A stretch of 64,000 nt of DNA from a virus. The stretch covers positions 32,001 to 96,000 of the IMG/VR virus record IMGVR_UViG_3300021197_000868; one strand, written 5' to 3'. Made by a program: the position numbers and the translations under genes. This document shows positions 3,131 to 60,924 of the stretch, piece by piece; within the stretch, counting starts at the first letter, position 1; every line of letters begins with the position of its first letter. Under the pieces are notes generated by a model, which searched no databases, was not told the origin of the DNA, and saw only the letters and a list, made by a program, of their open reading frames with translations.

Positions 3131-3906
3131 GGCCAGTTAAGTCAGATAGAAGTAAAGAAGCAGACGATTTACTAAAGAAAGCAGAATATCTTCTGAAGAA
3201 AGCAGAAGATTTAGACATGATAGAACATGAAGGTGAAGATGTACCTGCTTTTGTCGCTGATGGAAAAGGACCTAACGATAAGAAGTCTAAGAAGTCTAAG
3301 GTATGCCCTGAATGTAAAGGTAAAGGGGATGATTGTGAATGCAATGAATCCGAAGATGAATCCGAAGATGAATCTGAGGGAGACTGCCCTGAATGCGGTG
3401 AAAAAATGAATAAGATGGGTTGCATGAAGATGGGCTGTGGTGGTAAAGTGGCTAAGGGAGCAGATATGGGCTCTCAGCCTAATTTCATTACTTCCTTTGA
3501 TTCTAATCCTCAAAACGTAATGTTTGCTGCTGAAAGCGGAGGACAAACTCGCAACGCCTATTACTCCACTAATCAACATTTATACAATGGTGAAGATGTA
3601 ACCAACAAAGGTTCAATATCTGAATCAGTGAATGTTGAGGCTCTATCTCCTAAAATGAACCCACATGATAGTATACAACGCCAAGTTGAGAACGGAGTGC
3701 TATCAAAGGCAGAAGAGGCACTAGCCAAAGCAAAAGAAGATTTGGCTAAGGCAGTATGTCGTCAATGTGGTGGCAATCAATTTTCAGGCTGTAAGTTAGG
3801 ATTCGGTATGGACTGCCCCGGTTTATCGGGCACAGGCCACGATAACGTTGGCGCTGAAGAAGGTCACCGTGACTCCGCCCCACCATCTGAATGGACTCAA
3901 TACTGA
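3127..3906 (+). CDS. Cys-rich (zinc-finger-like), acidic, low-complexity head-module protein
   Basis: CPECKGKGDDCEC, CPECG...GCMKMGCG and CRQCGG; many xK-[AG] sites; ATGA overlap with the upstream gene. Confidence 0.6.
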   Translation: MRPVKSDRSKEADDLLKKAEYLLKKAEDLDMIEHEGEDVPAFVADGKGPNDKKSKKSKVCPECKGKGDDCECNESEDESEDESEGDCPECGEKMNKMGCMKMGCGGKVAKGADMGSQPNFITSFDSNPQNVMFAAESGGQTRNAYYSTNQHLYNGEDVTNKGSISESVNVEALSPKMNPHDSIQRQVENGVLSKAEEALAKAKEDLAKAVCRQCGGNQFSGCKLGFGMDCPGLSGTGHDNVGAEEGHRDSAPPSEWTQY

Positions 3907-3919
3907 TGGTGGTGTTGAT

Positions 3920-6900: not shown

Positions 6901-9367
6901 TATGAGTGCTATTGGTTTTGACCACGATGAAGATGACCCTCTTTACGAGCAACACAAAGACCTTGCTGAAAGGCTACGTGATAGTGCTCCTACTGAAGGT
7001 GGTTTACGGGCTATGACCCACGGCTCTTTATTGAGCACTGGAATGGCTTTCCATCCTAGAGGTCAAGACATTTCCTTAGACCATGAAAAGCATACTAATC
7101 ACATGAATGCTTTTGAAGAGACTTATGATAACGAGCCTGTAGTTCAGCGTTACAAAGAAATGGCTAGGGAAAAAGCACTGACTGGTAGAACTACTGAGAG
7201 AGGAAAAGAAACTAAAGGTTTGAACGAGTGGTTTAAGACTAATTTTCTTGGTAAATTAGGAGTAATTCCTCGTTTAATGAGCAAGCATTACAAACCAGAA
7301 TCTGAAAAATATGGATTAATGCACTTACCGATGGGTGATGTGAAGGATAAAAGTCACAATAAGAGTAAAGTTAAAAGTTTAATTCATGATATAATCGCAG
7401 TAGACCCTAAAATGGTTGACGTTGAACATGCTATTAAGCCCACAATAGATAGTACAGAGACTCCTATTGATAAATTAAACAGAAGTCATGGGCGAGAAAT
7501 ACACCCCGCTACGTCATTAAAGGGAGCCAACGTAGGCGACTATTTCGTTTCAGGTGCTATGGAAATGGGCTACCCAATGACTCCTACAGTTGGAATAGAA
7601 TGGGATGGTAGTAACTTTGTGGCTGGAACTAACATGCCTAGTCAGCAACAACTTCATTCTATTTCCGAGGAATCTTTGAATGCTATTCATGGTGAAGATA
7701 CAGTGAAACAAGTAATGGCTTTACCCGGACAATTCCCTAGCGGTCCTAATTCTCAGAACCCTAATCTTTTACTTGGAGGTAGAGCCGAGAGTGATAATCC
7801 TGATGATATGGGTAAATCTGATGATATGGGTGATACACTTACTGCCCTCATGGACCCTGATGTTTTGATTAAGAGTGATGATGGTAAACCACTTCCTATT
7901 CTTCCTATGCACCGTATATTCTCAGTTAAGGACTTTGAAGCATTACGTGGTTTTAGTGGTGAATGGGCTGCTTCAATACTCCCTGCTGATGAAAGATTCA
8001 TAGTTCGTAAGAAGGGTAATAGAGTCACAGCATATGATAAGGATGGTGATGTTGCTTTATCACCTGAAGATAGAAAACAATTCAAACTACTAAATGACAA
8101 GAACTGGATGTTAGATGCTGTTAAGGACGGTGGTGAGATTAACATTGTAGACATAATAGAATACGATGATACAAACATAGCCGACATGACTGTACGAGAG
8201 CGTTTGAAAGTTCTAAGAGGACAGTTCGATAGCCATGAACATGTCATAATTCCCGGCCCTCATAATCTACGATTAACAGATAATGAAGGACTAGAGACGG
8301 TTGTTGAAAGTTTAAATGAATCAGGAGAGCGTATTTTACTTCGTGACGCTACCTCTACTTACATGCGTGGAGAGAGAAGACACCCTAAGTGGTTCTTACT
8401 TAGACCTGATAAAGAAGTGACTCTCATCATTTTAGATGTTAGGGGTAAAGGTCCTTTCACTTATAGATTAGGAGCAGGGCCACTCGATGTAGAAGGTTTC
8501 GGTAATCGTGGTGTAGAATATGAAGGACAATCATATCTTGATGTGGGTACTGTAAAGAGTTCTAAACCATTTGAAGAAGGTGACTTTGTGAATGTTAAGA
8601 CTTCAGGTGTTAAATCAAGAAATCGAAATGGTAAGACTATATACGACGTAGCCGTATCTAAGATAGTTACAGAGACTGATGATGCTCCTGCTTCTCTTGA
8701 GACATTGTCACTGTTAACTAAATCACATTCTGTTATACCTGTTCAATTTTCAATCGACGTAACACATAATAAATTAACAGTATCTATACCTCAAGTAGAT
8801 GATGTAATCTACAAGATGAATAGAAACGCACATGGGCAGTGGGCTCACTCCCCTTACTCCACCTTGGCTGATTTACAAAAGAATGAATATCCTATTCTAT
8901 TGGCTGAAAGCCTACGACCTTTATGGAATCAAGCAGCCTCTTTAATGCTAAAGGGCGTAAAAGTCGGTATTGAAAGTGGTACACGTAGTATGTCAGACCC
9001 TAAACATCGTAAGCAAAGTGAAAAAGAATCCGCTGGTATTATTGATGATGATGATGAAATGAACATTCTAAAGCCTCAAATGGTAAAGACTCTAAGTCGT
9101 ATTGCTAACTTAGTAGATAAGGTAGCGAAAGAAAAAATGTCAGGAAGAGTAGGCGCTCAAGGCTTCGGAATAGATGTAGGTGATGGTACTGAGTCACCTA
9201 GAGGCCCTACTTCTCTTACAAGTGAAGAGTCACTACCTGACTGGGATATGTTGGAACGTCCTACCGAAGACCCCGAAGAAGAATACCCAGCGGCTCGTAG
9301 CAAGAGGCTAAAGCAAAAAAATAGAGAGGAGTCTAACGTTTATGAAGGAGATGAGGAAAATGAGTGA
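3920..9367 (+). CDS. Large His-rich putative internal head protein with a C-terminal degenerate ATP-dependent DNA ligase-like domain
   Basis: Probable GTG start at 3920 after a GGTGGTG RBS (the track starts at 3848). The region ~7885-8700 has ligase-like motifs: PILPM, GEWAASILPADERF, WMLDAV, IVDIIEYDD, RERLKVL, ERILLRDATSTYMRGERRHPKWFLLRP, then an OB-like segment. Confidence 0.7.
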   Translation: MREDAADWYLRARSDLVKSILDELDYDYSVGNYVLASENLRRHGYDVVKGPEDFICDLVVKEEMKEDEKSWKEKIASGDRKEIAEGRLERRQEERGKLEQRGRERTYDTSYLSTGSTANIVPDHHWQNRFKESTTHDFVSLFPDADIKEDSLYPNTHPFQKENHPLLTTNVRTGLPAFIETLRDLYLPSKPGASSLAEQIKKHETMQENHHVKNNNSSVTGVKDSITGEISHPFSGPLHDSHLHDMYLDNLENWKHENQDLVDSITKKYSNPEEQDFAIAQAHMDNAIKGWMNKDVNDSGMRTSLGWGGYNLGLEWLSPTQRNNVVEHLMGSGSTSQGAQKISIDGSKGKHISVGRIKRNLKHRFSPEFFHQMRGIIHTSQNQRKHVEGEGDVRDMNDHDYQLLYDALHDTHHEEHGNMANAIINALNEKHGGGDSEPLTSIHGLRSYPKLKQSLKSQDVIQALADTGENVMNRGVNRAALLHLLGLKQTKDGYEVNEKGHFNHTDRPLSVEDMKKLDETMVEKRIGLLKDKMIRNAESHGHLGFNGPHDEDIPEDENDLWMRTQHGTVGNGAIFSMPFMRGGNGRSSLAKLEMLHDWMPKDEEGNSLIGDITPEGALRINNKNVGLFGSVVPADSQMMDSSSMGHHQTQSFWDASSHRKESKKGRFKNRNTKQSHHIGHSTLDPEIANTLGRLTRDERVDAIGTGGFTHHLEGRSTSAHNPIMQRGQSATGIETRIRDNGRLSHNVHTRLGRNHPPHKPAKVRMLKHTEMKLPKNKQHRTHTGDARVFDAVHELSGKSRKDLPEKSTLEYQEKLESALDEVNHLEDMVTMYADTGDEMPDGLMDKLMAAKMNLKNLEEVDATTLASGRGMTHHHKQFDLKMDGDLTAITQMAAKLKPIMEKEDPTAFDTTNKLKFLSNTSRLYHDANRMLMIAPNDSHGLTTYGPGIDEEKIKSASAIASEITGDTIVPHRNMMLSTMEHGVDITHDMSIEDVMSAIGFDHDEDDPLYEQHKDLAERLRDSAPTEGGLRAMTHGSLLSTGMAFHPRGQDISLDHEKHTNHMNAFEETYDNEPVVQRYKEMAREKALTGRTTERGKETKGLNEWFKTNFLGKLGVIPRLMSKHYKPESEKYGLMHLPMGDVKDKSHNKSKVKSLIHDIIAVDPKMVDVEHAIKPTIDSTETPIDKLNRSHGREIHPATSLKGANVGDYFVSGAMEMGYPMTPTVGIEWDGSNFVAGTNMPSQQQLHSISEESLNAIHGEDTVKQVMALPGQFPSGPNSQNPNLLLGGRAESDNPDDMGKSDDMGDTLTALMDPDVLIKSDDGKPLPILPMHRIFSVKDFEALRGFSGEWAASILPADERFIVRKKGNRVTAYDKDGDVALSPEDRKQFKLLNDKNWMLDAVKDGGEINIVDIIEYDDTNIADMTVRERLKVLRGQFDSHEHVIIPGPHNLRLTDNEGLETVVESLNESGERILLRDATSTYMRGERRHPKWFLLRPDKEVTLIILDVRGKGPFTYRLGAGPLDVEGFGNRGVEYEGQSYLDVGTVKSSKPFEEGDFVNVKTSGVKSRNRNGKTIYDVAVSKIVTETDDAPASLETLSLLTKSHSVIPVQFSIDVTHNKLTVSIPQVDDVIYKMNRNAHGQWAHSPYSTLADLQKNEYPILLAESLRPLWNQAASLMLKGVKVGIESGTRSMSDPKHRKQSEKESAGIIDDDDEMNILKPQMVKTLSRIANLVDKVAKEKMSGRVGAQGFGIDVGDGTESPRGPTSLTSEESLPDWDMLERPTEDPEEEYPAARSKRLKQKNREESNVYEGDEENE

Positions 9368-13450: not shown

Positions 13451-13750
13451 ATGGGCTTAGAGATTTCAACTATTGACTTCGACGACATTAGTCGTTTTCA
13501 GAAACAGGCATTACGTTCAGATGTAAGCATGGATTTGTCAGCGTTTGTTGACCCCGATAATCCACTGAAAGGCATTACAAATGAACAGCGTAATCGCAAT
13601 AGCGAGGCTGCTGATATACTCAATATAGGTTCAGGTACAAGGTGTACGCACTGTGGTATGCTCCATTTCTTATGGCGTGAAACATGCGCTACTTGTAAGA
13701 AACCTATGGAATATAATCTTGCTACTAGGAATGAGGAGGCTCGTGAGTAA
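13451..13750 (+). CDS. Zinc-ribbon protein
   Basis: CTHCG...CATCK. Confidence 0.6.
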   Translation: MGLEISTIDFDDISRFQKQALRSDVSMDLSAFVDPDNPLKGITNEQRNRNSEAADILNIGSGTRCTHCGMLHFLWRETCATCKKPMEYNLATRNEEARE

Positions 13751-30500: not shown

Positions 30501-33500
30501 TTTAGTGGGGTTACCATTGACGTTAATGACGGGACCAAGAATGACTACAGTGATAAATATACACACGCATATGCAAATGGCCCCAACGGTGTTGCTGGTA
30601 TACAAAACGCAAATGAGACACTGTCATCGTTTTCTTTACTAGACTGTAACGCTATCTTGGCCTTCTTCCCCGGTACTGCTTTATTAAACCAGCATCGAGG
30701 TAGTCTCAATCCACCCTTCTTTAACAAAGACAACGTGCTTAGCCCTGATTTGAAAGCAGGGAGTCAGGGAGTAAATGATAAACATCCCACTGGTACTGTG
30801 TATAGTAGTGGTGTTCATCTTCAAGTTCCTTCTCCATTAGTTCTACGTTTCGCTCATCCAACTGCTCGTTACAGCGACCATGTAACGGCCACTGAAAACA
30901 AAACCACCTACTTAATTTATGGACCCGGTCAAGCATTCCCATATACTCAAGAAGTTTCTACTCCTGTAAATACGTTTGAGCCTCATCCGGGTAGAGCAAT
31001 AACAGTAGGAAATGGATGGTCTGCTGTGCCTTACACTAGTGGTAATGCTTCCTTTATGCCTAACCATATCGCTAATCATGATGGTTTTTATTTCCCTGAA
31101 AGTTCAACCTATCAATTAGGAAAACATCGCTTCCATTGGCGGCAAACCCTAAACTGGGAACCGCCTCAAGGTAGGCCAAATGTAGCAATTCTAAAGCAAA
31201 GACCTGAATCAGGTCGTATGTATGGTGAAATGTTTAACTTAGGTGTAACTAACTTAACCGATACTGAAGTTCACGAATATAGAAAGGCTCACCCTATGAG
31301 ACATGCTGTGTTTATGGGAGGCTCTATGGCGAGCAACTCAGAGTGGTGTTTCCATATGGATGGTGGGTATCATCCCGGTGGTACTTGGTTAGATAATCAG
31401 ATTACTTTCAACCCACCTCATCCTAGTAATAATAGCAGGGTCGCCAAACTCTCCGGGAATGAATTACACCCTACTGCATTCCGTGTCGCTGGTCCTTTAA
31501 CGACTAAAGTTCTCTACGGTGCTTCAGGCGGTGCTTTTGAGGCTCAAACTTTAACGACATCAGATGTTAACATGGAATACATAGTAGTAGATGGCACTAG
31601 ATGTCAAAATGGTGAAGAGTTAGCCTGTGTATTAGGTGCTGCTATAAACACGTTCCCCGGGGGTGGAGCACTCAAATCTATGGGTGGTACATTCATGCCG
31701 AGTATGGGTAATGCTATGCGTCAAGACCGTTATGGTTGGAGAGAGATAGATGACTCTAAGATTGTGTCTTATCAAAACTCAAACAATGACTTACATGATT
31801 GCTTTATAGTCTTGAACATGGGTACTACTGAAAGCGATGCAAGAAACATACCTGAAACGGGTTGGTTGCGTACCAGCAACAGTTTTGCTACAGGTTTAGT
31901 AGCGCAAAATACTCCAGCATTTGCTCCTTATCACTCTAGGATTGTATACCTAAACGGCTCAGACTACTATGTTAAGTTCTTCATAGGGCGTAATAGAATA
32001 ACTGGTAATCTTAGATTTGAAACATCAGCAACTTGGGATAACAAATTAGACAGCGCTACTCTAACTTATCCTACTATCAACACTGCTAACGTTGATAAAA
32101 TATATGTATGGACTAAGGCGGGTGTACACACTGTAGGTCTAGACGAAAGTACCACTGAACGTTTAGCGTACAACAGAGTACACTTTAGCGGTTTAGTAGA
32201 TGCAATTGACAGAACTAAACCGATTGGTGCTGTAGGCTGGTCCGGCAATCGTTATTCTTATCTCAATACTTTATCAGTAGGAAATGGAATTGCAGCGGGT
32301 CTTGGTGCTTGGCATTCTTCATTAGGCTTCTCACCTTATGGTAACAGCATAGGTTGCGCTAATGCTTTCGGTCATATACCAGTCATAGCACCTATGCCAA
32401 ATAGTCCTGAAAGTAGCCCACCTAACGACGGTAGTAGTGCTCTTGCTAATTTCCCTAATGAAGACAATCCTGATGGACCTCATGATGAAGCACAAATGGA
32501 TTCTGCCGTTACTGGTAGTTACACATTCCAAAATGTTGAAACTAGTGTTTATCATAACACTCCTATACTTACAAATCAACTTGACTTACAAAAGGAGTTG
32601 ACACATAAACAAGGTATTTATTCACGTGCTCTATTAGTCGTAGCACATGAATCAGAATTAGCACTGATAGCCAAGACAGACCGTAACGGTCACAAAAGTT
32701 GCGGAGACTGGATATTTTTAGGTAGGGCTGCGGATTTTACTAAAGCAGGTACAACTAGATGGGATGACCGAATACATGGACAGGATAGGTTCTACGCCCC
32801 TGCAAATGCTGGACCTAACGTTGAGGCTTTGATTAGAGATGGTACGGTCTTCCCTACTATAGCAGACTATACAGCATCTAATGCTTTAGATGGTAGTCCA
32901 TTCAATGCTGCTATAACTTTACATTCGACTCTTACTGCTGATACCCAATTAGAAAATGCTGAACCTTGCCTAAGTAAAACTGGTGACTTATTCTTAGATG
33001 TTGATAAAAGCATAGGCTCGCACTTTTCAGCAAGTGCTGGTGCTCAAAGAAATGTATCTGATGGTTTTTACAATTCTGCTTCAGTCGCTCCTTCTTCTTT
33101 ATTCGGTGGGACTAAACAGAAAAATACATTTTGGATTGGTGATGTTAATGGCTACGCTATGTATGACCGCTCTCCCGCTGACAACTTTAACATTGAACAT
33201 ATAGTTTGGAAGAGAATGGACGGTGGTAGTCTATCCATGCCAGCCGTTAATGCTCGTGGACTCGGTGCTATTCCTTTTATCAATCGTGTTAGCGGCATTA
33301 ACATAGGAGGTACTGGTGAATTAGCAGATACTCGTGCTGCTGGTACTGAACGCACTATAGGAGAAAAAATATATGGTAACGTTAGATTCTCGTTTGAGAC
33401 TACAAACAGCGCCATGTTACCTATATTACAAGCACAAGAACTATCACATCCTCAACTGGCTAGTAAACACCCTATAGCGCTTCAAAATGTGCTAGATATT

Positions 33501-36500
33501 CCTAATGAAGAATTACAGTTTGAAGATATGAATGTAGTTGATGATACAGGTCAAACACACGTGTTGAGCGGCGGCTCTCCTCTCGGTGTAATTATCCGTG
33601 CGTTTAGACCGACTGGAGAGAGGCTTGTTAGTGGTCTTGCACCAGCAACTGCTAACTCATCATTATCTCCTAACTTAATCATTCAATTACCTGACCCTGA
33701 TTCTATACCCGGAAATATACTAGTACGTAGTGGATTTGATAAATTACAAGCATATCAAAATGAAACTATGGGTGACGGTGGTATGATACATCCTGACCTC
33801 GGGCACTCACACATAGGTCATTTGTTTGATAACGTAGTAAAGGGACCTAGATTAGCCCCTACGATGAATGAGTCAGGTTGGGAACACGTAAGTGAAGGTA
33901 AGCCTCCCCCTCGTGAAGATGCTGACTTCGTAGATAGAGATTTCACTTATCCTGATAGCACTAAGGAGTCATGGCGCTCAGCAACTAATGATAACACATT
34001 AGCATCTTCTTATGAATTACATGACCGTACGCTCTTTTTCCATGTTACTAAAATGGGACATAGCCATACAGAAAGATTCCCTAATTCTTACACTCACGCT
34101 AACGGTATACAAAATCAATCGCTTACAGTTTCAAATTATGCAAGCGGTACATTAACTGCATCGGCTACTATAACGGCGACTATCTTTGATGCTGATTTTG
34201 CTACAAAAGAGCGTAGTGACAATAGGCGCTTCTTACGCCTTGCTACTACTACAGATAGTGTAGTGTTATCTTACACTGGTATTAGCGGTGCTACGTTCAC
34301 AGGAGTAGTTGGGGATATTGACTTTGACCAGTTCATAGCAGATAACCTAGGTACATCAACTATCACCATATCACCATCTTACTACATACCAGCAGGTAGC
34401 ACTCGTTTCTTCGCAGCACGTAGACTTCGTGACCACGCTGAAGTTAGCGGTAACAGTCCTGATATGGCTCATACTGAATATATTAGTGGTAATCAAAATA
34501 CTTTAATTATCAACAGATACAATAAACCACAGTTAACACCTATGCCAATGCCTCGCATGGGGCATCATTTCGTAAATGCTTCCATGCCAATGCTACCGGG
34601 ACATTGGGCTCATCCCGCTTATCAAGGTCTATACAGTAAGCACGAAATTGAAACAAGGGCTAGTTTACAAAATCCTGATTTAATAAAACTTTTAGATAAT
34701 GTGAACCCTACAACTACTACACTAGGAACATCAATTACAGATTACTTACATCCACTTAGTCCGCAACTAAGAATTAGTAGTTTAACCCCTACACCTAGTG
34801 GACCTAGTGACATACATGGTGGAGCATTCACATTAATGTTTGAAACTAAAGTGCGTTATGACGGCTATGGTATACTAGCATCCAAAGGAACTGCTGGTGA
34901 TATGAATAAACTAGGAGGGCATTCTATAATACTTGAAGCAGGTGCTAACTACACCCAAGATGGTCACTTCCCTGACCCTGCTGAAGTAGGCGCTTATCAG
35001 ATTGTTATACAGCCTAACCTGAGAAAGCATCAAATTACAGGTTTCCATCATAATCATAGCACTGCAACTGCTTTACCTAATGGTACTGCACGTGAACTGA
35101 CAGGTCAGCAGGTTAATCTTGTAGTCGGTATAAAATATGATAGTGAGAGAGGTGGCTCTCCTATTGGTGGGGTGACTCTTATCCTCGCTGAAGCCACTCT
35201 TGCTGACGTAAGGGGCTGTGAGATTTTCATTAATGAAATAATGTTAGACTATGACCCTGACCACGGAAGTCAGTTTACCAATACACCACCAATGCTGCTT
35301 TATAATGCACTTGGTGTACAGGGTAGCGAATCCCCTACGTTTACTCGCAGAAGTTTACCATATACTGTGGGTATGTTCGCTAATGCTACACCGGGGTATA
35401 CATCCAACATACCTTGGTGGAGTATAATTCACAAAGTAGGACCTGATGATAGCACTTCTAATGGTTTTACGCATCTAGCGTTATATCGCTTAGATAACTA
35501 TTACGAGTTCTGTAGGCCCTCTCATGGATGTATAGGTGCTCAATTAACACTTGCTGGTTATCCTTCTATTAGTCCTGATATATACTCACAAACTTTTGAA
35601 AACATATCTTTAGTAGCAGTCGCTAGAGTCACAGGAATTAGTTCAGGTAACTATGTAGATGTTGATGATGCTTCATTCTTCCCCGAAGTACCTTACTATA
35701 ATCAGAAACTGATATACACTGACGCTAATGGAATAGTTCAAACATTATCATACACTAAACGCTCAGGTCATACTTACTCTAGTGCTACTATGAATAGACC
35801 TACTCGATTCATAACAGCAGAAACCACCATGCCTCCAATTAATGCTATACTTAGATTATCATTACCTTACTCTACTAAGTTTGCTTCTGAACTATTTAAA
35901 GACAATAAATCTAGTGTCTTAATGCAAAACCTAGACCAATTACGAAAAGGAACTAGAGACACTAACGCTCTTTACACGCCTGACGCTTTCCTATCTATGT
36001 GGCATCCTAATTTGGGTAGACCTCATACATTCTACTCCGATGGTAGTAGAACATGGGGTAATGCTACTTCTGATAGAGCAGTCAATAAAGCAGCATACAA
36101 TAGTATGCCTGAGCACTTTGAAACCATACACTATCATAGTGTAAACTATGCTGCTAGTTTAGGTCCTTTCAATCTTGACTTCAAGACACCTAAGCCCCCT
36201 ACTAAAATTAGTCAAGTTACTACTGGTGCTACTACTAACACTCTAACATTTAACACGGATATTCGGGCTCAGTTTGACGCTGGTGACTATATCTTTGCTG
36301 ATGGTAAGGTTATAGGTAAAGTTGCTAGTGAGGCATTCTCTAATCCAACAACCACTATTACCTTCTCAGAGAATCTATTCTATACACCAGCAACTGGCTC
36401 AACTGTATTCAAAGATGCAGACGGTAGTGTAGATACCGCTGCTAATATACACGCTATGACGGGCTACGAGGCACAAGGTAGCGCTACAGTCATGCTGAGT

Positions 36501-52255: not shown

Positions 52256-54631
52256 TCACCAATATGTTTTAGGGACTATATCCCCCGCTGCCGCTTCTAT
52301 AGACCACCCTACACTTTCGTATAAGCGCATTAGTTTACGCTTCACGAAGGTATCTAGTATCTTATCCCAGTCGACTATGAAATTATCTAATTCTTCTATG
52401 TCTCTAAACGCTACATATTTTACAGGGAGACTCTCACCATTTAGTTTGTAATAGTCAGGAGTGCCTTCTTTGACTCCCTTGACGTAAGTCCATGTCACGC
52501 TGTCTCCTTCTCTCCACTTCTCACCATCGCAGTGTTGATTGTAATACAAAGCAGCCCTTGCGCCATTGGTAGGCTTAGAATACTTATCAGGTGCTTTTGT
52601 TAATCTGTTAGAGGACACTACATGACTCATAGGTATATCACCACTCTTAACAGAGAGCGATATGGTTCTCAGGGTTTCAGTAACCTCTTCCTCTTCTGCG
52701 CCATGTCCTATTAGTTTCATGGCTGTCTCTTGAATCTGTTTAGTAATAGGCGCTGAACTAGATGCTTTCATCTCATAACCTGAAACTTTCAATTGCCCCG
52801 CTTCACTAGGAGGCCAAGTCTTGTAACCAAAGTATCTATTCTTGACAGACGCAGTAGTCCAGTAATCGAAATATGTTTCTAACTCTACATCCATATGCGA
52901 AAGGTCTAGTTTAGTTCGGGCTGTCTCGGTAAGATGTTCAGCGAGAGCCTTAGCCTCATCGAATGGAACTTGAATGAATGCTGAATCTGTGTGACCGAAT
53001 AGTGACTTGTAACCCATCTCTTCGCTTTCAGACAATAGATGCCTGATAGACTCACGAGCCCTGAAAGTGATAGCAGATGCTATGTCATTATCAATCCACA
53101 TACCCTGTATCTCTTTCATACCAGTCATACCGTAAAGAGCGTTCACAGCAACCTTCGCTGCCATTTGAAGCATGTTGTAACCAAGGCGCTCCTCCTCTGT
53201 CTTAGACTCACGCATGAGGCGTTTGTACTCCTTACGTAACTCTAGCATTTCTTCTACGATAGACGGTAGTAAACCCTTCTTTGTTTGGTCCCAGTGTGTA
53301 CCGTTACCTAGGCTCTTAATACCCGGCCCCGGCCCATCACGCTTAGATTCGTAAGAGAGATTGTCGGAGAGAATGATGTTAGGATATAGCGAGGCGTAGT
53401 CTACTAGAGCCACGCCTCTATGACGACCCATAATTGGGTCAGGAATGTAAGCAGCCTCTAAGTCTTCTCTCGAAGTTTTACGAGAACTAGGGGCCTTCTC
53501 TTCTGTGCGCCTACCTACTAGACCACGGAAGTAACGTGTAACCTTGTGAGTGCTCCCCCACGATACACCTGCTAATTGCTGCATAGCCACGAAGAAATCA
53601 ATAGCATTTAGTCGCTCACTGATGCTGCTTAATAAGGTGGTGTCCCGTAGACAGTAATCCACGAAATCATCATAGTATTCTTCCCACCCATTGAAGACAG
53701 TCATACCTTCTACTTCATCAGTTAGTTTGGAACCTAGTTCCAGTAAACCGGCAATCGTGTTTAGTTTACGATTAGGTAGTTGTCCACGGCCTGACTTCTG
53801 CCATAGAGTTTCAAAGCCACTACCGCTTTCCCATCTAGCGGCTGAGTCCCAACATATCCTACCTCTAATCGGTTGTTGAGTTTCTTTGTAACCGTTCTCT
53901 TTGAAGGGTTTTATCGCTGTATTGATTGGTGATAGCCTGTTAGGGTCTTTGAGTCTCTTCATTAAGTGTGGTAAATCAGCCCACATGAGAGCGTGCGCTA
54001 CTAGAATATCAGGGTCACATGCTTCCATGTGCTGAAGGAATCCTTCGTGCATAGCCGCTTCGCTACCATACTCATGTAGCATGTAGCCTCCCTCTCGCTC
54101 AATGAAGTTAACACTCATCGTCTTCACTTCAGGCTTCCAAGCGAATACCATAGGTACATCAGCATGTGAATCTACTACCGCCATAACAGTAGTGAATGGA
54201 TTATTCTTATCGGTATTCCATTCAAGGTCAAAGTACCATACTCTAGGGTGAAACACTGGTAACTTATCGGGGTACTTATCTAATAGGATTTGGTCAAGGT
54301 AATGTAAGTCTGCTTCATAAGTAGGGAGGATTGCTTTAACTTCCCATAACTCATTAGGTTTGTCTACCTCTAACTTGATTAGTGCTATTCCATCACGGCC
54401 TCTAGCCTTACACTTAGGATGGAGTGTGGCTGCCGGATGACGGTTACTCAACCTATCGAGTTTCCACTGAGGGAGATTAGAAGGAATCCAGCAGAAGGGG
54501 CGAACATAACCCTCATCGTCAGGGTGTATGGTAGTGACATCTAACTTACCATCCTTATCTCTAGTTCTAAGGTATAGTGAGGGCGCTCCAAAAGAGTCTG
54601 ACCATTCAGGGTAATACCAGTCTACTATCAT
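52256..54631 (-). CDS. polB: Family B DNA polymerase
   Basis: Exonuclease motifs FDLE and YCLRD; polymerase motifs DYASLYPNI, KVAVNALYG, FGHTDS, KNRYFG. Confidence 0.95.
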   Translation of the reverse strand: MIVDWYYPEWSDSFGAPSLYLRTRDKDGKLDVTTIHPDDEGYVRPFCWIPSNLPQWKLDRLSNRHPAATLHPKCKARGRDGIALIKLEVDKPNELWEVKAILPTYEADLHYLDQILLDKYPDKLPVFHPRVWYFDLEWNTDKNNPFTTVMAVVDSHADVPMVFAWKPEVKTMSVNFIEREGGYMLHEYGSEAAMHEGFLQHMEACDPDILVAHALMWADLPHLMKRLKDPNRLSPINTAIKPFKENGYKETQQPIRGRICWDSAARWESGSGFETLWQKSGRGQLPNRKLNTIAGLLELGSKLTDEVEGMTVFNGWEEYYDDFVDYCLRDTTLLSSISERLNAIDFFVAMQQLAGVSWGSTHKVTRYFRGLVGRRTEEKAPSSRKTSREDLEAAYIPDPIMGRHRGVALVDYASLYPNIILSDNLSYESKRDGPGPGIKSLGNGTHWDQTKKGLLPSIVEEMLELRKEYKRLMRESKTEEERLGYNMLQMAAKVAVNALYGMTGMKEIQGMWIDNDIASAITFRARESIRHLLSESEEMGYKSLFGHTDSAFIQVPFDEAKALAEHLTETARTKLDLSHMDVELETYFDYWTTASVKNRYFGYKTWPPSEAGQLKVSGYEMKASSSAPITKQIQETAMKLIGHGAEEEEVTETLRTISLSVKSGDIPMSHVVSSNRLTKAPDKYSKPTNGARAALYYNQHCDGEKWREGDSVTWTYVKGVKEGTPDYYKLNGESLPVKYVAFRDIEELDNFIVDWDKILDTFVKRKLMRLYESVGWSIEAAAGDIVPKTYW

Positions 54632-54635
54632 ACGC

Positions 54636-55391
54636 TCACGCACGCTGGTCTACTACTACAAGCAGGTCTTCACCTTGCTCGACTACAAAGACTGTGTTAC
54701 TACCCATGTGAACTTCAGCAGGGCCTTCCTTCAACAAACCTATACTCTCCATCAACCAAGCACCGTAAGTAGATTCTATAGGTGCATTAGGCCCAACAGG
54801 GTCAGTTAGGGTCACCGTATTGAATAGCCTAGCCTCATGTTTCTTACCTGCTGTAATACAAAGTTCAGACTCACCAGCATTCACTATCACTCTAAAGACA
54901 GGGCTGGCATTTAGAATACCCCTCATCTTTGAAACTGTTAGTAAGTCGGTGACGTTTACAGTACCACCTGCTTCTAAATCAAATGTATGCCACTTAGTCC
55001 ACTGAGAATCTATTGATGTTTCTATTATCTTCTCAATCAAAGGAACTTTACTGTAACTAACTACTGCTGTGCTAGTAGGGAATTGAACCTTAGTAGTACC
55101 TGCATTGATGTAAAGGGTCTTACCAGTACCTAACTGCTTGATGGTGACATTGTCACCCTTAGCAGACTTGAGGAACTTGCATATCTTTTCTAATTCAGTG
55201 AAGTCTATAGTACCCGACTTCTTGACTTCACCTTCTACCTGCTCTACTTTGTGAAAGTAGTGAGACATGAAAGCAACAGTAGAGGACATCTTACCATCGA
55301 GAGCAAAGGTAACCTTCAGGTCACCTACATTCTTACCGAATGAAGATAGGAAAGATAACGCTTGCTTGCGTTTCATTACAACTTCGGACAT
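54636..55391 (-). CDS. Putative sliding clamp (PCNA-like)
   Basis: About 250 aa with a two-domain alpha/beta pattern; adjacent to PolB and near RFC. Confidence 0.55.
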   Translation of the reverse strand: MSEVVMKRKQALSFLSSFGKNVGDLKVTFALDGKMSSTVAFMSHYFHKVEQVEGEVKKSGTIDFTELEKICKFLKSAKGDNVTIKQLGTGKTLYINAGTTKVQFPTSTAVVSYSKVPLIEKIIETSIDSQWTKWHTFDLEAGGTVNVTDLLTVSKMRGILNASPVFRVIVNAGESELCITAGKKHEARLFNTVTLTDPVGPNAPIESTYGAWLMESIGLLKEGPAEVHMGSNTVFVVEQGEDLLVVVDQRA

Positions 55392-55633
55392 CAAATCATA
55401 CCCCTGTATTTTCTAGGCTTAGAGCCCATACCTATCTTCTCTGTAACTTCATGTATGTCCTCATCAAAGTCGATTGGTAACTTACTTTGTGAAGGCGTAG
55501 TGATGTCACCAAACTCACCAAGAGTAGACTGACGTAGCACATGCTTACCACAATGAGGGCATAATCTGTTCGACTGAACAGGAGGCTTATGCTCCATAAC
55601 TTTCTTCCAAAACTTCCATTTCATAATAATCAC
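55391..55633 (-). CDS. Small zinc-ribbon-containing hypothetical protein
   Basis: CPHCG; QSTLGEF resembles a PIP-box-like motif. Confidence 0.45.
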   Translation of the reverse strand: MIIMKWKFWKKVMEHKPPVQSNRLCPHCGKHVLRQSTLGEFGDITTPSQSKLPIDFDEDIHEVTEKIGMGSKPRKYRGMI

Positions 55634-55645
55634 CTAACACAAGGA

Positions 55646-55764
55646 GGGAGAACGGTTAGAGGCAACAAAAAACCCCTTTACACGGAAAACTACAGTAGTT
55701 GGACGGGGGTCTATCTACTGAGGAAACACACCAAGCATAACCGTTTTTATTTGTGCAAACTCCC
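55646..55764. other. Intergenic nested inverted-repeat element (candidate structured RNA or origin)
   Basis: GGGAG/CTCCC, AACGGTTA/TAACCGTT, ACCCC/GGGGT and AACTAC-A-GTAGTT are nested. Confidence 0.45.
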
Positions 55765-55775
55765 ATGTGAATAAA

Positions 55776-56777
55776 TCAGAGTGTGCCATCATATAGTTCG
55801 GGTAATCCAAACCATTGTGGCTCCTGTCCTGCCTCCGTAATTAGAGTAGTTCTTTTCTGACCTTGTAGTCTAGCATTGGTCTTACTCTTTTCAAATGTAA
55901 CTTGGTACTCACTTCTTATCACTTCACCAGTGTCGTCATCTAAAGTGTCCTTACGGTCACAGATTAGTATCTGATAGACAAAGTTGTTACTAGCCTTTTC
56001 CCAGTCAGGTCGCCACGTAGGGTTAGAGTCCTCAGACTTACCCCACGAATAGTTAGTCAACCTCAGGTGAGTCTCCCAAAAGACACGTACACCTGATTTG
56101 ACTAGTCCTCTACATAGACCAGTCAACTGATGGAAACGAGTCTTACGAATAGCCCAGTCCCATTGATGACCTACCTTCTTGTTCCAGTCAGCAGCCTCGA
56201 TGCCATCCTTAGCGATGTTCAAGTCCACGATACGCATACAGTTTACACATACGCTGTCCCATAAGTCTACGCCTGTCACTAAGAATCCCCATAGTCTAGT
56301 ACCCTCATACTCAGGGTCACGTTGTTTATGAGCGATGTCATTAGCGAACTGTGTAATCGACATTACTCTGTCATGAGTAGCCGGGTAGTCGTATGCTGTA
56401 CGGTCACCTTTGGACATAACCCAAGGTTCCCAACATTTGATACCATCTTCTTCACGGTGGAATGCTGACTTGTTAGCAGCGCCTCCACCTTCAAAATCCA
56501 TAATCCATAGTTCCATCTCTAAGTCCTTCTCAGTACGTTCAGGCATAGCCTTCCACTTCCTGTAAGCGTCAGTAACAATAGCAGTCTTGCTAGTGTTATC
56601 GTGACCAGCGATACCCATGAATAGGTGAGTCTGTGGTGCATTGTCCATCATCTGTAGTTCCTTCTGTAGCATAGCGAAAGGGTCACTAGAAGTGCTCTTG
56701 TTAGCAGGAGTTTCTGCAACAACAACCTCTTCTTCTTCTTTCTCCTCAGCCTCTTTTGTCTTACCAAATCCTGCCAT
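55776..56777 (-). CDS. RecA-superfamily (Sak4/AAA_24-like) ATPase
   Basis: Walker A-like GHDNTSKT, IMDFEGG, LVTGVD, FWETH, FEKSK. Confidence 0.55.
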   Translation of the reverse strand: MAGFGKTKEAEEKEEEEVVVAETPANKSTSSDPFAMLQKELQMMDNAPQTHLFMGIAGHDNTSKTAIVTDAYRKWKAMPERTEKDLEMELWIMDFEGGGAANKSAFHREEDGIKCWEPWVMSKGDRTAYDYPATHDRVMSITQFANDIAHKQRDPEYEGTRLWGFLVTGVDLWDSVCVNCMRIVDLNIAKDGIEAADWNKKVGHQWDWAIRKTRFHQLTGLCRGLVKSGVRVFWETHLRLTNYSWGKSEDSNPTWRPDWEKASNNFVYQILICDRKDTLDDDTGEVIRSEYQVTFEKSKTNARLQGQKRTTLITEAGQEPQWFGLPELYDGTL

Positions 56778-56788
56778 TCATAACCACC

Positions 56789-58114
56789 TCATTCAAACTG
56801 GCCTCTACCAGTTTCTCCGCCTGTTGCTCTTCTGCGAATACGCCTTGAATCAGCATACACACCCATGATTTTCAAGTTAGGAATGTCTCTACCATCTTTA
56901 CGCTTGACTGCAATACGACCACACACAAGTACGGTAGAACGCTCAGCATACGGGACTTCTTCGTCTCCTTGGTAAGCAACAAAGGGACTAGTTAAGTCAT
57001 TACATGCGCTTCCAATCCACCCCATCACTTCACGCCCGTCACTGTTACCATGAAGGCTTTGAAGTTCAGTAGATGTTAGGCTCAAAGAGTAGGTACGGCC
57101 ATTCTCATCGTAATCACTATCACGTGCTTCAGATGACAACCTGTTGATTGTACCCTTGGTAAATACTACCGGCCCCGATTTACCCTGTTCACCATTGATA
57201 GTGAAAGAGCGACTACCTGATTCAAAAGCCTCAGTTAAGTCTTCAAGTGGGGTATAGTAACCATGAAGTTCTGTGTCTACCCACATTCTCATTGGGTTTA
57301 GAAGAGGGCGAACCTCCTCAGATACGAAGTCCTCAGTGTATTCGATACTATCTTTTATACCGAGTGATGTACCAAGTACATCTTTGAATCCTTCAGGAGC
57401 CTTATCATTAGGCGGTCTTGCTTCTAGTCTGCAAGATTTACCAATGCGTACTTCCATGTTAGCACTCTCACCTTGACAGTCTAATCTCCATAGTTGAATA
57501 GCATTGTCATTAGTGAACTCTTCTTCGGGAGCACCCAAGAAGAAATAGTTACGACCCATCATACTCATGGCCTTTGGTCTACCGGCCTTAGTGAGTAATA
57601 CAATACGCTCACCGTCTGATATGAAAGAGTGGTCAGGGACTTCATCTGTAGAGAACTCACTGCGCTTCTCACCGTTAGAAGTGTTTAGCATCCACACGCC
57701 TTCACCTTTGGTATAGTGACCTACAAAACCACTTCCAACTGCTGCGCCGGAATCAAGAGTAAAGTCACGCTTTGCTCTCTTCACTAGGTTAGTACGACGG
57801 TCACGTGAGTTAGGCTCTACTCCTACGAACATACCTACGAATGGAATGCCACCGTAGTTACCGCTACCTGAACTTTCGTTACGGGTTTCGATGAGCATTT
57901 GCTCGGCCCAGTCTGTAAGTAAGTCTTCATCCTCATTGGCAGGGTTCTCACATAGATACTCCTTCCCTATGTAGGCTAAGAATTGCTTCTCTACTTCTAC
58001 TAAATCTTTCTTAGTTCTCTCAGCGTACTTGGTTAGTCTTTCAACCACACCTGCTGGTAGTCCTATTGTGCTTGCTTCTACTGTATCTTCCATACTTTCA
58101 TATTCTTCACTCAT
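56789..58114 (-). CDS. Putative RPA-like OB-fold ssDNA-binding protein
   Basis: Acidic and beta-rich with a helical N-terminus; between the ATPase and RFC; OB-like C-terminus (STVLVCGRI..NLKIMGVY). Confidence 0.4.
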   Translation of the reverse strand: MSEEYESMEDTVEASTIGLPAGVVERLTKYAERTKKDLVEVEKQFLAYIGKEYLCENPANEDEDLLTDWAEQMLIETRNESSGSGNYGGIPFVGMFVGVEPNSRDRRTNLVKRAKRDFTLDSGAAVGSGFVGHYTKGEGVWMLNTSNGEKRSEFSTDEVPDHSFISDGERIVLLTKAGRPKAMSMMGRNYFFLGAPEEEFTNDNAIQLWRLDCQGESANMEVRIGKSCRLEARPPNDKAPEGFKDVLGTSLGIKDSIEYTEDFVSEEVRPLLNPMRMWVDTELHGYYTPLEDLTEAFESGSRSFTINGEQGKSGPVVFTKGTINRLSSEARDSDYDENGRTYSLSLTSTELQSLHGNSDGREVMGWIGSACNDLTSPFVAYQGDEEVPYAERSTVLVCGRIAVKRKDGRDIPNLKIMGVYADSRRIRRRATGGETGRGQFE

Positions 58115-59018
58115 TGTGTTCAACCTCCTTCTTCAGTCGAGCCACTAGGCAGTCGACGAAGGAATAGGAACCGATAGGCCACTCGTACATGTGTGGAACC
58201 ATCTCACCTAACACGGCCATTACCGTGAAGGTTGTATCTGAATCCATCTCAATAAAAGATGTTAAGTTGTTGTGGAATGAACGCATGACCTGAGTAATAG
58301 TATGTCCTCGGTCTAGCATTCTATAGAGGGATGAACGCATGTCAAGCCATTGACTTCCCATAGCAGCCAGTGCTGCTGCTGATGCGTTGTTCTCTTCTGT
58401 CTTCAATTCGGTTATAGCCTCAGAAGATTCTGCTTGCATCCATTTACTGACTGCTGAGCGCATGTCGCCGCCTGTATGGTAAATGAGATACATGGCTGCA
58501 TCTTCACCTAAGTCTCTGAGTTGCAGTAATCTCTCAGCGCCTTCTTCAGGTGTGATGGGTTTGAACTCATAGCATTCGCATCTGCTCTTGATAGCAGGGC
58601 GAATCTTGCTCACGTCATTAGCAGTGAGAATGAACAGACAATTGTCTGCATTGAGTTCAATGATTTGTCTTGCTGCATCTTGAGCAGCAGGGGTAAGACC
58701 ATCTGCCTCGTCTAACACAATGACTCTTCTAGGAGCGCCTACTGCTTTGACACTGCTCCACTGTTTCAAGTCATTCCTTACGAAGTCAATACCCCTGTCA
58801 TCACTAGCATTTGTGATGACGTAGTTGATAGGGTCATAGAAGTCTCCTAAGACGGAGCGTGCTATGACTCTAGCAGCACTGGTCTTACCTGTACCCGGTG
58901 GACCGTACAAGAGAATAGCGTTAGGCCACTCTTCTTTATCTTCCCAAGAACGAGCATCACTAATGAAGTGAATCTGACCTGCTAGGTCATCTAATGTCAT
59001 TGGTTCAAACTCCATCAT
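58107..59018 (-). CDS. rfcS: Replication factor C small subunit (clamp loader)
   Basis: PMTLDDLAGQ, GPPGTGKT, NASDDRGID, LDEAD, AIKSRC, GGDMR. Confidence 0.92.
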   Translation of the reverse strand: MMEFEPMTLDDLAGQIHFISDARSWEDKEEWPNAILLYGPPGTGKTSAARVIARSVLGDFYDPINYVITNASDDRGIDFVRNDLKQWSSVKAVGAPRRVIVLDEADGLTPAAQDAARQIIELNADNCLFILTANDVSKIRPAIKSRCECYEFKPITPEEGAERLLQLRDLGEDAAMYLIYHTGGDMRSAVSKWMQAESSEAITELKTEENNASAAALAAMGSQWLDMRSSLYRMLDRGHTITQVMRSFHNNLTSFIEMDSDTTFTVMAVLGEMVPHMYEWPIGSYSFVDCLVARLKKEVEHNE

Positions 59019-59472
59019 CGTCGCCTCCTCTATCTTCTAATCCTGCTTTAAGTAGTGATGCGCTGTATGCCTCGATTTCAGCATCAAATGCTGAAGCCCA
59101 TTCAGTGAAAGTTTCAAAGTCTTTTGGAGGAGGATTATCATATACCCAACAGAACATGTGTAGTCCTTCTTGGTCTGCAAAGAGGGGGCGCAGTGACATC
59201 TTTGAATTGTCTGACATCAGAATGTAAGCCATCCATCTTTGTACTTCATTCTTGGAAGTGTATCGCTCTTTCACTTCAAGACCTGCTACTGATAGAGCGT
59301 CTTCTACAGTGGTGTGTGCTTGTAGTGAAGGCATCTGAGTCCACCTAACACTAGGCTTGACCCTGAAACCTGCTGGTCTGTCGCTGGCTTTTGTTACACT
59401 GACATTGAATGTGACTCCACCTAGAATGTAACCTATACCTAGCCATGTCTCTCGCTCATCATTCTGTATCAT
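59005..59472 (-). CDS. Degenerate LAGLIDADG-fold protein
   Basis: WLGIGYILGGVTFNVSV...GFRVKPSVRWTQ follows the I-CreI-type helix/beta pattern but lacks the acidic catalytic residue. Confidence 0.45.
   Translation of the reverse strand: MIQNDERETWLGIGYILGGVTFNVSVTKASDRPAGFRVKPSVRWTQMPSLQAHTTVEDALSVAGLEVKERYTSKNEVQRWMAYILMSDNSKMSLRPLFADQEGLHMFCWVYDNPPPKDFETFTEWASAFDAEIEAYSASLLKAGLEDRGGDDDGV
59033..59058 (-). promoter_or_regulatory. 26-bp motif copy upstream of the RFC gene
   Basis: 25/26 identical to 63130-63155; the TTAAAG core is ~30 bp before the start codon. Confidence 0.55.
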
Positions 59473-60736
59473 TACTCATCCCCCTTTCTATTAACTCAGT
59501 GACTTGAACTATGTCACCTATACCTAAGTTAGGTCGGTAACCAATGTATATTCCTTGATTGATATAACCATCCTCACCTACTTGTACGGCTGCTACTTCT
59601 ATGACATTCAGTTCACCCTTACGTCCGAATACACCACCATCTTCACGGTGTGGTTTTTCAGGTATGGGTATCTTAGCCACTGTTACTAACTCATCTAGTC
59701 CATCAAGAGCAGCGAGAGTCCAGTGACTATCATCAATCTCATGCAAGCATAGGTTCACACGTGACCTGTGTGGGTACATCACGTAGCCCATTACTTCATC
59801 AGGTTCGTATATACTACTACCTTCTATCAGTCTTACAGCCTGTACGTCAGGAGAGTTTAGTCTTACGTTCACCTGAAACCATGCACCTTCTTTTTCAAGG
59901 GGGATGACTTCAGTCTCAACACTAAACGTATGGCGGCGCTCATCGAAACTTCTGTACACACCCTCATAAATATCAATGCCTACATCTCCTACCGCCTCTA
60001 TTATCACGCCAGTGCCAGCCCTACATTTTCTATATTCATCAGTCACTAACTCACCGTTACGATGTCTTACCTTACCAGCGTAGTGATAGTGTAAGTCTCC
60101 ATTAGGGATGACTACTGCATAGTATTCTCCTTGTGGTGGACTTAGTTTAGACCAACGTCTCCATCGAGCAGGAGCAGGGAATAACCTTGGGTGTCTCCAC
60201 CATTCCTTTAGCACGTGGATAGATTCAGGGTCATCATACATCTTAGCGAGTGTCTCCTGATTTGTGTTCTGTCTAACTATCTTCGGTGGTATCTCAAAGG
60301 AGGCAGCCATCTTACCAAAGAAAGACCGCTTGCTTATTGGTGGTTTACCACTGAGGAGATAACGCCAAACTAACCTAGCCTCAATCTCATTGAACTGTTG
60401 TGCTATCTGCGAGAAGGACATATCTTCAAACGGTAAGTCTAGTACCTTCTGACATGTCATGTCTTTTGATGCTGCTTTATTACTCTCGGATGCGAGGGCA
60501 TACCATACCTCCTCATGTGGTAGCATGTTATCAACCACGTCGAAGTAAAGTTCCATCTCCTTTGCTATCTTGCTAACAGCATTGTGTCTTTCAACTCTAG
60601 CCTTTGTAGGGAAGAAGAACTCATAGAAGTACAAAGCCTCATCCTTATCGGTGAGCCAACCTCTAAGTTGGTTCCCAGTGAGTTTGTCACCTAGTCTTAG
60701 ATGCTCGTGCATGGTTGCTAGTTTAGCGAACCTCAT
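59459..60736 (-). CDS. Degenerate archaeal-type ATP-dependent DNA ligase-like protein (DBD, NTase and OB regions)
   Basis: N-terminal MRFAKLA and EIEARLVWRYLLSG..MAASFEIP resemble the ligase DNA-binding domain. Motif I region reads GEYYAVVIPNGD with no Lys. SFDERR and SIYEPD follow. Confidence 0.55.
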   Translation of the reverse strand: MRFAKLATMHEHLRLGDKLTGNQLRGWLTDKDEALYFYEFFFPTKARVERHNAVSKIAKEMELYFDVVDNMLPHEEVWYALASESNKAASKDMTCQKVLDLPFEDMSFSQIAQQFNEIEARLVWRYLLSGKPPISKRSFFGKMAASFEIPPKIVRQNTNQETLAKMYDDPESIHVLKEWWRHPRLFPAPARWRRWSKLSPPQGEYYAVVIPNGDLHYHYAGKVRHRNGELVTDEYRKCRAGTGVIIEAVGDVGIDIYEGVYRSFDERRHTFSVETEVIPLEKEGAWFQVNVRLNSPDVQAVRLIEGSSIYEPDEVMGYVMYPHRSRVNLCLHEIDDSHWTLAALDGLDELVTVAKIPIPEKPHREDGGVFGRKGELNVIEVAAVQVGEDGYINQGIYIGYRPNLGIGDIVQVTELIERGMSNDTE

Positions 60737-60924
60737 CCTCTCACCTCCAAACAAGCAGGGCATACTGGTAGTGATTTGATGAACTCCTTGTCATTCATCT
60801 TACTGTTAGGCCAACTGGTATTAGTTGACACTGAGTCGCACAGGTTACCTGTGCTAGTTATGAAGATGTGTATTACCTTAGGAGTCTTCCTCTTATCCCA
60901 GTCAGCCCATTCTACATCGCTCAT
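60733..60924 (-). CDS. Small hypothetical Cys/His protein
   Basis: Coupled ORF; H..LC..CPAC. Confidence 0.5.
   Translation of the reverse strand: MSDVEWADWDKRKTPKVIHIFITSTGNLCDSVSTNTSWPNSKMNDKEFIKSLPVCPACLEVRG

Follow-up and report, generated by a model that had tools for sequence, protein, structure and literature searches.

A conserved ligase-fold protein without a catalytic lysine in the replication gene block of a magrovirus-like genome

The poxvirus protein A20 (vaccinia OPG148), called A22 in mpox virus, is a non-enzymatic processivity subunit of the viral DNA polymerase that derives from a DNA ligase whose catalytic site has been disrupted. It bridges the polymerase and UDG, and its source was a bacterial NAD-dependent ligase (bioRxiv 10.1101/2022.11.22.517515; 10.1101/2023.09.03.556150). 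Ligases are also part of what is known about the magroviruses, which in the surface ocean rank among the most abundant viruses of archaea and are cited for a near-complete archaeal-type replisome. These viruses form the order Magrovirales; they are tailed, infect marine group II archaea and have genomes of ∼100 kb (PMC5434244, PMC10768690, PMC12999244). Philosof et al. described magrovirus ligases as readily similar to cellular ligases and as the result of three independent acquisitions (PMC5434244); inactivation of these ligases is mentioned neither there nor in the ICTV profiles consulted. Here we describe LIGL, a 425-aa protein encoded on the minus strand within a block of replication genes. 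The DNA analyzed, hereafter the window, is a stretch of 64,000 nt comprising bases 32001–96000 of the 104,930-bp IMG/VR record IMGVR_UViG_3300021197_000868 (estimated completeness 97%). Because its gene content matches that of published magroviruses, we treat the record as a magrovirus-like genome. LIGL is predicted to have the fold of an archaeal-type ATP-dependent DNA ligase, but it lacks the catalytic lysines. That it is a pseudo-ligase is well supported; its function we infer from its neighbors and its pattern of conservation.

At the level of sequence, LIGL is not recognizable as a ligase. It has no match in Pfam, PHROGs or NCBIfam, none in the PDB by either sequence or profile, and none by tblastn among GenBank phages. 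A six-frame search with PF01068, PF04675 and PF04679 returned nothing at the LIGL locus whatever the threshold, and the best ESM Atlas scores (≤0.86) were uninformative, pointing to unnamed or helix-turn-helix clusters. No sequence profile therefore places LIGL among the ATP-dependent DNA ligases above a curated cut-off. Some similarity emerges when the C-terminal half of the protein, for which a deeper alignment is available, is compared with archaeal ligases using hhalign (E = 5.5e-4, Prob 30%); these comparisons were run in local mode, as global mode gave nonsense. A first-pass annotation of this DNA, made from the sequence alone, had proposed a pseudo-ligase here and had named the lack of a ligase-profile hit among the results that would refute it. 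By that standard the proposal would not stand, but the resemblance to ligases is real at the level of the fold.

The full-length AlphaFold2 model of LIGL, built with 19 homologues, has a predicted local distance difference test score (pLDDT) of 77. It matches ATP-dependent ligases from Thermococcus and Pyrococcus with Foldseek E values of 1.2e-10 to 9e-10, and aligns with 3gde with a VIA-align Z of 12.8. Residues 1–174 of this model resemble the DNA-binding domain (DBD) of Lig1 (8b8t_A; Z 9.8, root-mean-square deviation (rmsd) 3.9 Å over 166 residues) and that of LigIV (7d9k_A; Z 9.2). A second model, of residues 178–425, was built with 50 diverse homologues and covers the nucleotidyltransferase (NTase) and OB domains with a pLDDT of 90.2 and a predicted template modeling score of 0.83; it aligns with 3gde at Z 13.3 and with 2hiv at Z 13.1. 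The first 147 residues of the second model superimpose on the Chlorella virus ligase (2q2t_A) with Z 12.7 and an rmsd of 2.7 Å over 136 residues, and the NTase model also matches 10ye_L (Z 12.6), LigIII-alpha (Z 12.6, 2.9 Å over 143 residues) and the African swine fever virus ligase (Z 12.4). Ranks 1–43 of the search with the NTase–OB model are occupied solely by ligases, capping enzymes, RNA ligases and inactive derivatives (snurportin-1 and 8wpf chain B). OB folds come next and match residues 148–225 of that model. The DNA-binding, NTase and OB domains expected of a Lig1-type ligase are all present in the predicted structure, which clearly has the archaeal-type ATP-dependent ligase fold over its whole length. 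The DBD-like N-terminus and OB-like C-terminus suspected in the first-pass annotation thus both find their counterparts in the models.

Within this fold, the DBD retains the N-terminal MxFxxLA helix and a signature helix reading EARLxWR (canonical EAKYxxR). The NTase domain is minimized, the canonical domain being ∼200 aa long. The OB domain (325–402) is followed by a C-terminal helix; the invariant residues of this part of the protein are ALDG (345–346), G405, D408 and Q411. Both C-terminal domains are acidic. In the NTase domain the acidity is mild, the median isoelectric point (pI) being 5.9 compared with 7–9 for the basic NTase of archaeal ligases; it is strong in the OB domain, for which the family median is a net charge of −9 and a pI of 4.5.

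The absence of a conserved lysine is apparent without reference to any particular motif assignment. No alignment column reaches 85% Lys in 42 distinct LIGL members, and in 103 members basic columns reach 70% conservation only at Arg121, Arg191, Arg226, Arg267 and Arg302, none of which is Lys. The strand predicted to carry motif I reads AVVIPNG, YQRIPNKG, WFVxDCG or YEIVRG, depending on the clade (∼100 members), with only the glycine kept and no conserved Lys; in LIGL itself (AVVIPNG), Ile210 occupies the lysine position. Colinear hhalign alignments of low to moderate confidence place Ile304 at the motif IV lysine, two residues after the invariant Arg302, and Tyr321 and His323 at the Lys-x-Lys of motif V. 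Motif VI (RFPR), which lies in the OB domain and is needed for adenylylation, aligns in hhalign with a variable segment, YINQGIYIG in LIGL, that is not conserved. Of the sequence following motif VI, only R-x-D is kept, as Arg401 and, presumably, Asn403, where relatives have Asp. LIGL thus lacks the motif I lysine (KxDGxR), the lysines of motifs IV (EGxxxK) and V (xKxK), and motif VI.

What remains in the NTase domain is Arg226 (motif Ia, RxGE; R or K in 98 of 103 members), Glu247, Asp255, Arg267 and Arg302. Glu247 and Asp255 are ∼98% conserved, on strands that strand order and alignments of low probability match to motifs III and IIIa; in full-length LIGL alignments, neither the second Glu of D/E-G-E nor the motif IIIa aromatic residue is conserved. 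No characterized member of the covalent nucleotidyltransferase superfamily is known to work without the motif I lysine. Since the lack of a conserved Lys does not depend on how the motifs are mapped, a classical ligase is excluded for the whole family, and LIGL appears to have lost ligation chemistry. The strings YAVVIPNGD (residues 206–214) and FDERR (264–268), to which the first-pass annotation had drawn attention, are both found in LIGL, and its observation that the motif I, IV and V regions lack lysine is matched by the absence of any conserved Lys in ∼100 members of the family.

Despite these losses, LIGL is a working gene, because the ratio of nonsynonymous to synonymous substitution rates (dN/dS) against a 78%-identical orthologue is 0.22 and full-length orthologues reach down to 23% identity. 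The constraint is unevenly distributed, with dN/dS values of 0.13 for the DBD, 0.20 for the NTase domain and 0.48 for the OB domain, so that the DBD is the best conserved and most constrained part of the protein. Homologues fall into ∼25 clusters at 40–100% identity, and the family is restricted, with 23 matches among 1.84 billion representative proteins. Searching with the profile of LIGL itself recovered 36 viral loci. A scan for the clamp loader added 80 loci, and a LIGL member lies just upstream of it in all 73 that have enough upstream DNA; the remaining seven end within 900 bp upstream. The gene order LIGL–orf155–RFC–orf444–orf333–orf252–PolB–PDDEXK–primase is identical in 36 of 36 loci, allowing for two in which orf155 was undetected and for some that stop before the last genes. 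The genes also overlap: the LIGL stop and the orf155 start by 14 nt, orf155 and the clamp-loader gene by 14 nt, and the clamp-loader gene and orf444 by 17 nt.

Many of these genomes have no canonical ligase. In the genome studied here, RNA_ligase and NAD-ligase families have no match, and the sole PF01068 match (18.2 bits, below the cut-off) falls within a 1839-aa head-module open reading frame (ORF). Fourteen of 19 related records, among them all five with a completeness of at least 90%, show the same picture. A hidden Markov model of archaeal ligases found nothing within 6 kb of the clamp loader in the 80 loci, and a scan for the archaeal ligase pattern yielded 29 viral loci, none of them related to magroviruses. 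However, a canonical ligase does occur in two of 13 further records: the relatives G036 and G047 encode, besides LIGL, an enzyme of ∼380 aa with the motifs KFDGVR and LQKVK and PF01068 scores of 72–75 bits. These enzymes (L180, at G036:C1:11420-15022, and L179 in G047) match archaeal ligases with Prob 95%, and the G036 copy is ∼18 kb from LIGL. The first-pass statement that no intact ligase is visible is therefore correct for this genome but not in general. Because LIGL and a true ligase coexist in G036 and G047, LIGL is not a stand-in for a ligase, which argues that it does something else. Nor did LIGL arise from the canonical viral ligase of these two genomes (hhalign Prob 0.1–0.2%), and that ligase shows no specific kinship with the head-module domain either (Prob 0.1–0.2%).

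We favor the interpretation that LIGL is an inactivated ligase reused as a non-enzymatic replisome subunit, scaffold or adaptor, and put its probability at roughly 0.6. We prefer it because the DBD is the most constrained part of the protein and because the gene belongs to a coupled operon. According to this model, a three-domain archaeal-type ATP-dependent DNA ligase would be the ancestor of LIGL, and with its ligation chemistry gone the protein would have become a core replication subunit of the Magrovirales, whose hosts are marine Poseidoniales archaea. It would be translated from a tightly overlapping string of genes together with orf155, the clamp loader, orf444, a P-loop ATPase, the presumed sliding clamp and PolB. 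The scaffold or adaptor would act mainly through its well-conserved DBD homologue and its acidic OB domain, with Arg226 (motif Ia) and Arg302 possibly preserving some contact with DNA. Sealing of Okazaki fragments would fall to the host ligase or, in some relatives, to a canonical viral ligase acquired separately. Candidate PCNA-interacting protein (PIP) boxes were rejected: the conserved SKRSFF (135–140) and the C-terminal Q411-xxx-L are spaced wrongly for the canonical motif, and SKRSFF lies in a predicted helix.

Several observations weigh against this model. The full-length hhalign comparison of LIGL with 11 archaeal ligases is colinear but not significant (Prob 1.8%), and the residue equivalences for motifs I and III come from strand order and low-probability alignments. 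The acidic NTase and OB domains leave DNA binding by LIGL in doubt. The sliding clamp is unconfirmed, as a PDB profile search identified none of orf252, orf444 and orf333 and the PCNA models of Pfam had no match; orf252 is presumed to be the clamp from its size, its position and the literature only. Lastly, an ‘ATP-dependent DNA ligase’ is listed among magrovirus replication genes (PMC5434244, PMC10768690, PMC12999244), an entry that may or may not refer to the LIGL family.

The alternative that we rank second has LIGL binding nicks or DNA ends without catalysis: like a ligase it would still wrap around or recognize nicked or 5′-phosphorylated DNA, but it would leave the DNA unsealed and would mark, protect or hand over Okazaki junctions, for example to the host ligase, or compete with that enzyme. 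The first-pass annotation had raised, as possible roles of the repurposed fold, a nick or clamp-binding decoy, a competitor of host ligase and a partner of the head-borne domain. All three domains with which a ligase encircles DNA are retained, the genome has no ligase of its own, and the conserved residues include Arg121 of the DBD signature helix, Arg302 and Arg226, the equivalent of which contacts the nicked strand in the Chlorella virus and Lig1 structures. However, the whole protein has only five conserved basic columns, motif V, motif VI and most of the nick-contacting lysines are gone, and the acidity of both C-terminal domains makes it somewhat less likely that LIGL closes around nicked DNA as a ligase does. 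On balance we think a nick-binding role unlikely, though it deserves serious consideration. It is much harder to argue that LIGL is still an enzyme, be it a nucleotidyltransferase or a ligase, either with a non-canonical nucleophile or with orf155, to which it is translationally coupled, completing it in trans as in heterodimeric phage ligases. The near invariance of Glu247, Asp255, Arg267 and Arg302, on strands that form the nucleotide pocket in ligases, is consistent with such an activity, as are the adjacency of orf155 and the existence of a heterodimeric phage ligase in the PDB (9hu3, Z 7.5). Yet there is no conserved Lys for catalysis, motif VI is not conserved, and canonical ligases coexist with LIGL in G036 and G047. 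A lysine supplied by orf155 was rejected by inspection, as the orf155 alignment has by eye neither a conserved Lys nor KxDG. We therefore regard residual enzymatic activity as improbable.

Snurportin-1, in which an inactive NTase fold binds the m3G cap, suggests that LIGL might instead be a non-covalent binder of a nucleotide or cap-like ligand. With 1xk5_A (Z 12.2, rmsd 3.2 Å over 138 residues) and 3gjx_B (Z 11.9), snurportin-1 ranks among the best matches to a single domain, and its NTase domain is similarly small, but true ligases score as well or better and match the DBD and OB domain too. Nothing in a replication operon calls for cap binding, and the full-length alignments show no conservation of the motif IIIa aromatic residue. 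We give this possibility very little weight. That LIGL is a decaying pseudogene or a chance ORF, as the want of a profile match in any family library might suggest, is refuted by how well the gene is conserved, with over 100 intact orthologues in fixed synteny; the low dN/dS, the confidently predicted fold and a coupled start with a Shine-Dalgarno-like site all speak for a functional gene, leaving this explanation a negligible probability. A replisome subunit that no longer ligates therefore remains our preferred interpretation of LIGL.

The first-pass annotation had also described LIGL as the second of two independent pseudo-ligases in the window, the other being a domain within the 1839-aa head-module ORF. 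In Philosof et al. 2017 (PMC5434244) this domain appears as the ‘ligase embedded in the structural module’. An alignment of the domain with archaeal ligases runs through motif I (Prob 70.6%), where the lysine position is occupied by L in the window (ILPADER) and by W in relatives (SKWYDGKR); motif IV reads LLRD and motif V WFLLR. The view that both ligase-like proteins look inactive is thus supported, but their independence is not. The LIGL NTase–OB profile matches the head-module domain with hhalign Prob 90.5%, E = 1.4e-6 and a score of 49.5, compared with scores of 11–24 and Prob up to 3.2% for reversed or block-shuffled controls. Because LIGL and the head-module domain are closer to each other in profile comparison than either is to archaeal ligases, a single diverged ancestor that was duplicated seems more likely than two separate inactivations. 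The two proteins share the absence of Lys at the canonical motif I, and the head-module domain has K-to-R or K-to-L changes in motifs IV and V. Unlike LIGL, the head-module domain is located inside a protein of ∼1800–2100 aa encoded between the portal and protease genes, keeps a weak PF01068 match (14–31 bits) and, in relatives, retains YDGxR.

A more far-reaching version of this idea, which we offer tentatively, is that one ancient and already inactivated ligase was duplicated for two non-catalytic jobs, as a replisome subunit and as part of a giant head-module protein, with sealing left to the host or to a separately captured enzyme. The replisome copy, heading the clamp-loader/PolB operon, would possibly tether the polymerase, the clamp loader or the clamp at primer ends in the manner of A20. 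If this scenario is true, prokaryotic viruses would have in LIGL their first pseudo-ligase subunit of a replisome.

The coordinates of LIGL and its neighbors are collected in Table 1. The longest ORF at the locus, 59459–60763 (434 aa, minus strand), extends beyond the LIGL coding region. We consider the ATG at 60736 the likely start because the ribosome-binding-site-like sequence GGAGGTGA precedes it by 4 nt, the upstream ORF 60733–60924 ends in an ATGA overlap with it, and all homologues begin at the same MRF/MKF. This evidence agrees with the coordinates and ∼425-aa length given in the first-pass annotation. The orf155 product, the conserved partner encoded next to LIGL, has no family match; its motif GxGYILGxxxF...G[FY]R[VL]R recalls a degenerate LAGLIDADG fold without the acidic residue. 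The protein encoded by orf333, for which neither the PDB nor Pfam gave a match, may be the ‘RadA-like ATPase’ of the literature.

Table 1. Positions of LIGL, its predicted domains and associated features in the window
Feature	Position	Strand	Basis or remark
LIGL, 425-aa ligase-fold protein without catalytic lysine	59459..60736 (stop codon included)	-	ORF, homologues, models
Predicted DBD homologue of Lig1-type ligases, helical, residues 1-177	60206..60736	-	model Z 9.8 and colinear alignment
Predicted minimized NTase domain, residues 178-324, 147 aa	59765..60205	-	model match to 2q2t_A, 10ye_L
Predicted OB-fold domain and C-terminal helix, residues 325-425	59462..59764	-	OB matches in model
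GGAGGTGA, ribosome-binding-site-like	60741..60748	-	4 nt before ATG at 60736
orf155, conserved partner downstream of LIGL	59005..59472	-	found in 34/36 related loci
Clamp-loader ATPase, RFC small-subunit-like	58107..59018	-	AAA, DNA_pol3_delta2; phrog_168 E 7e-40
Rest of conserved block: orf444, orf333, orf252, family B DNA polymerase	52256..58123	-	
orf333, Walker A motif GHENTGKT	55776-56777	-	mean column identity 72%
Ligase-like domain in 1839-aa head-module ORF (3848-9367)	7865..8827	+	weak PF01068 match and profile homology to LIGL

The minus-strand block around LIGL encodes a group II chaperonin, an ERCC4 nuclease, a primase-like protein, a PD-(D/E)XK nuclease, the family B DNA polymerase and the RFC-like clamp loader. 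The viral thermosome is 50% identical to one encoded on L053 (NZQM01000180.1), a 9.6-kb contig assigned to a ‘Parvibaculum sp.’ metagenome-assembled genome (MAG); this contig is probably a piece of a magrovirus that ended up in a bacterial MAG during binning. The plus-strand block of the window holds head and tail genes; in its tail region, a single ORF of 5687 aa (21585–38648) precedes ORFs of 472 and 1199 aa. Just upstream of the window is the terminase gene. Also outside it are an HMGL-like (HMG-CoA lyase family) gene at genome positions 13622–14494 (L002), a gene combining ArdC-N and zincin-peptidase domains (641–1672) and an SNF2 helicase gene (3847–6495).

These observations bear on how magrovirus replication is understood. 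As its sequence bears no detectable similarity to ligases, LIGL may be among the genes that Philosof et al. left unannotated, and it exemplifies a conserved family that all sequence-profile libraries miss and that only structure prediction identifies. A ligase homologue that is universally conserved in the replication module and predicted to be incapable of adenylylation, together with the many magrovirus genomes that have no canonical ligase, changes the picture of replication autonomy, because sealing probably depends on the host. LIGL is also a concrete target for reconstitution of an archaeal-virus replisome, which is of particular value because the hosts cannot be cultured. If our interpretation is correct, LIGL would join poxvirus A20 as a second, independent example of a DNA ligase turned into a replication protein without enzymatic function. 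What would be new relative to A20 is the source, an ATP-dependent three-domain ligase, and the setting, a virus of a prokaryote.

Among known systems, LIGL is structurally most like the Lig1-type archaeal and eukaryotic ligases (3gde, 2hiv, 2cfm, 3rr5), with which it shares the DBD–NTase–OB order (Foldseek E 1e-10; Z 12.8–13.3). Recognizable Lig1-type features include the N-terminal helix, the EA[KR]xxxR helix of the DBD, RxGE of motif Ia, the F-x-E-R helix after motif IIIa, the YxP turn before motif V and R-x-D after motif VI. LIGL differs from these enzymes in its length (∼425 aa versus ∼555), in an NTase domain shorter by ∼50 residues, in the acidity of its NTase and OB domains, in the loss of the motif I, IV and V lysines and the RFPR of motif VI, and in having no Pfam or NCBIfam match. 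The m3G-cap-binding domain of snurportin-1 is likewise a small, catalytically inactive NTase fold, but this eukaryotic nuclear import adaptor has neither a DBD nor an OB domain and functions in an unrelated context. With A20, LIGL shares a ligase NTase–OB fold, a disrupted active site, a place among viral replication proteins, a sequence diverged beyond recognition and, if our interpretation is right, a non-enzymatic accessory role. A20 has only the NTase and OB domains, set between other domains, whereas LIGL keeps a Lig1-type DBD and belongs to an archaeal tailed virus with its own clamp loader. The NTase model aligns with A22 (8wpf chain B) at Z 8.1 and with NAD-dependent ligases (3jsl, 4glx) at Z 8.4–8.7, compared with Z 12–13.3 for ATP-dependent ligases. 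Because A20 derives from an NAD-dependent ligase, A20/A22 is best regarded as an analogue rather than a relative of LIGL, and as its closest functional precedent.

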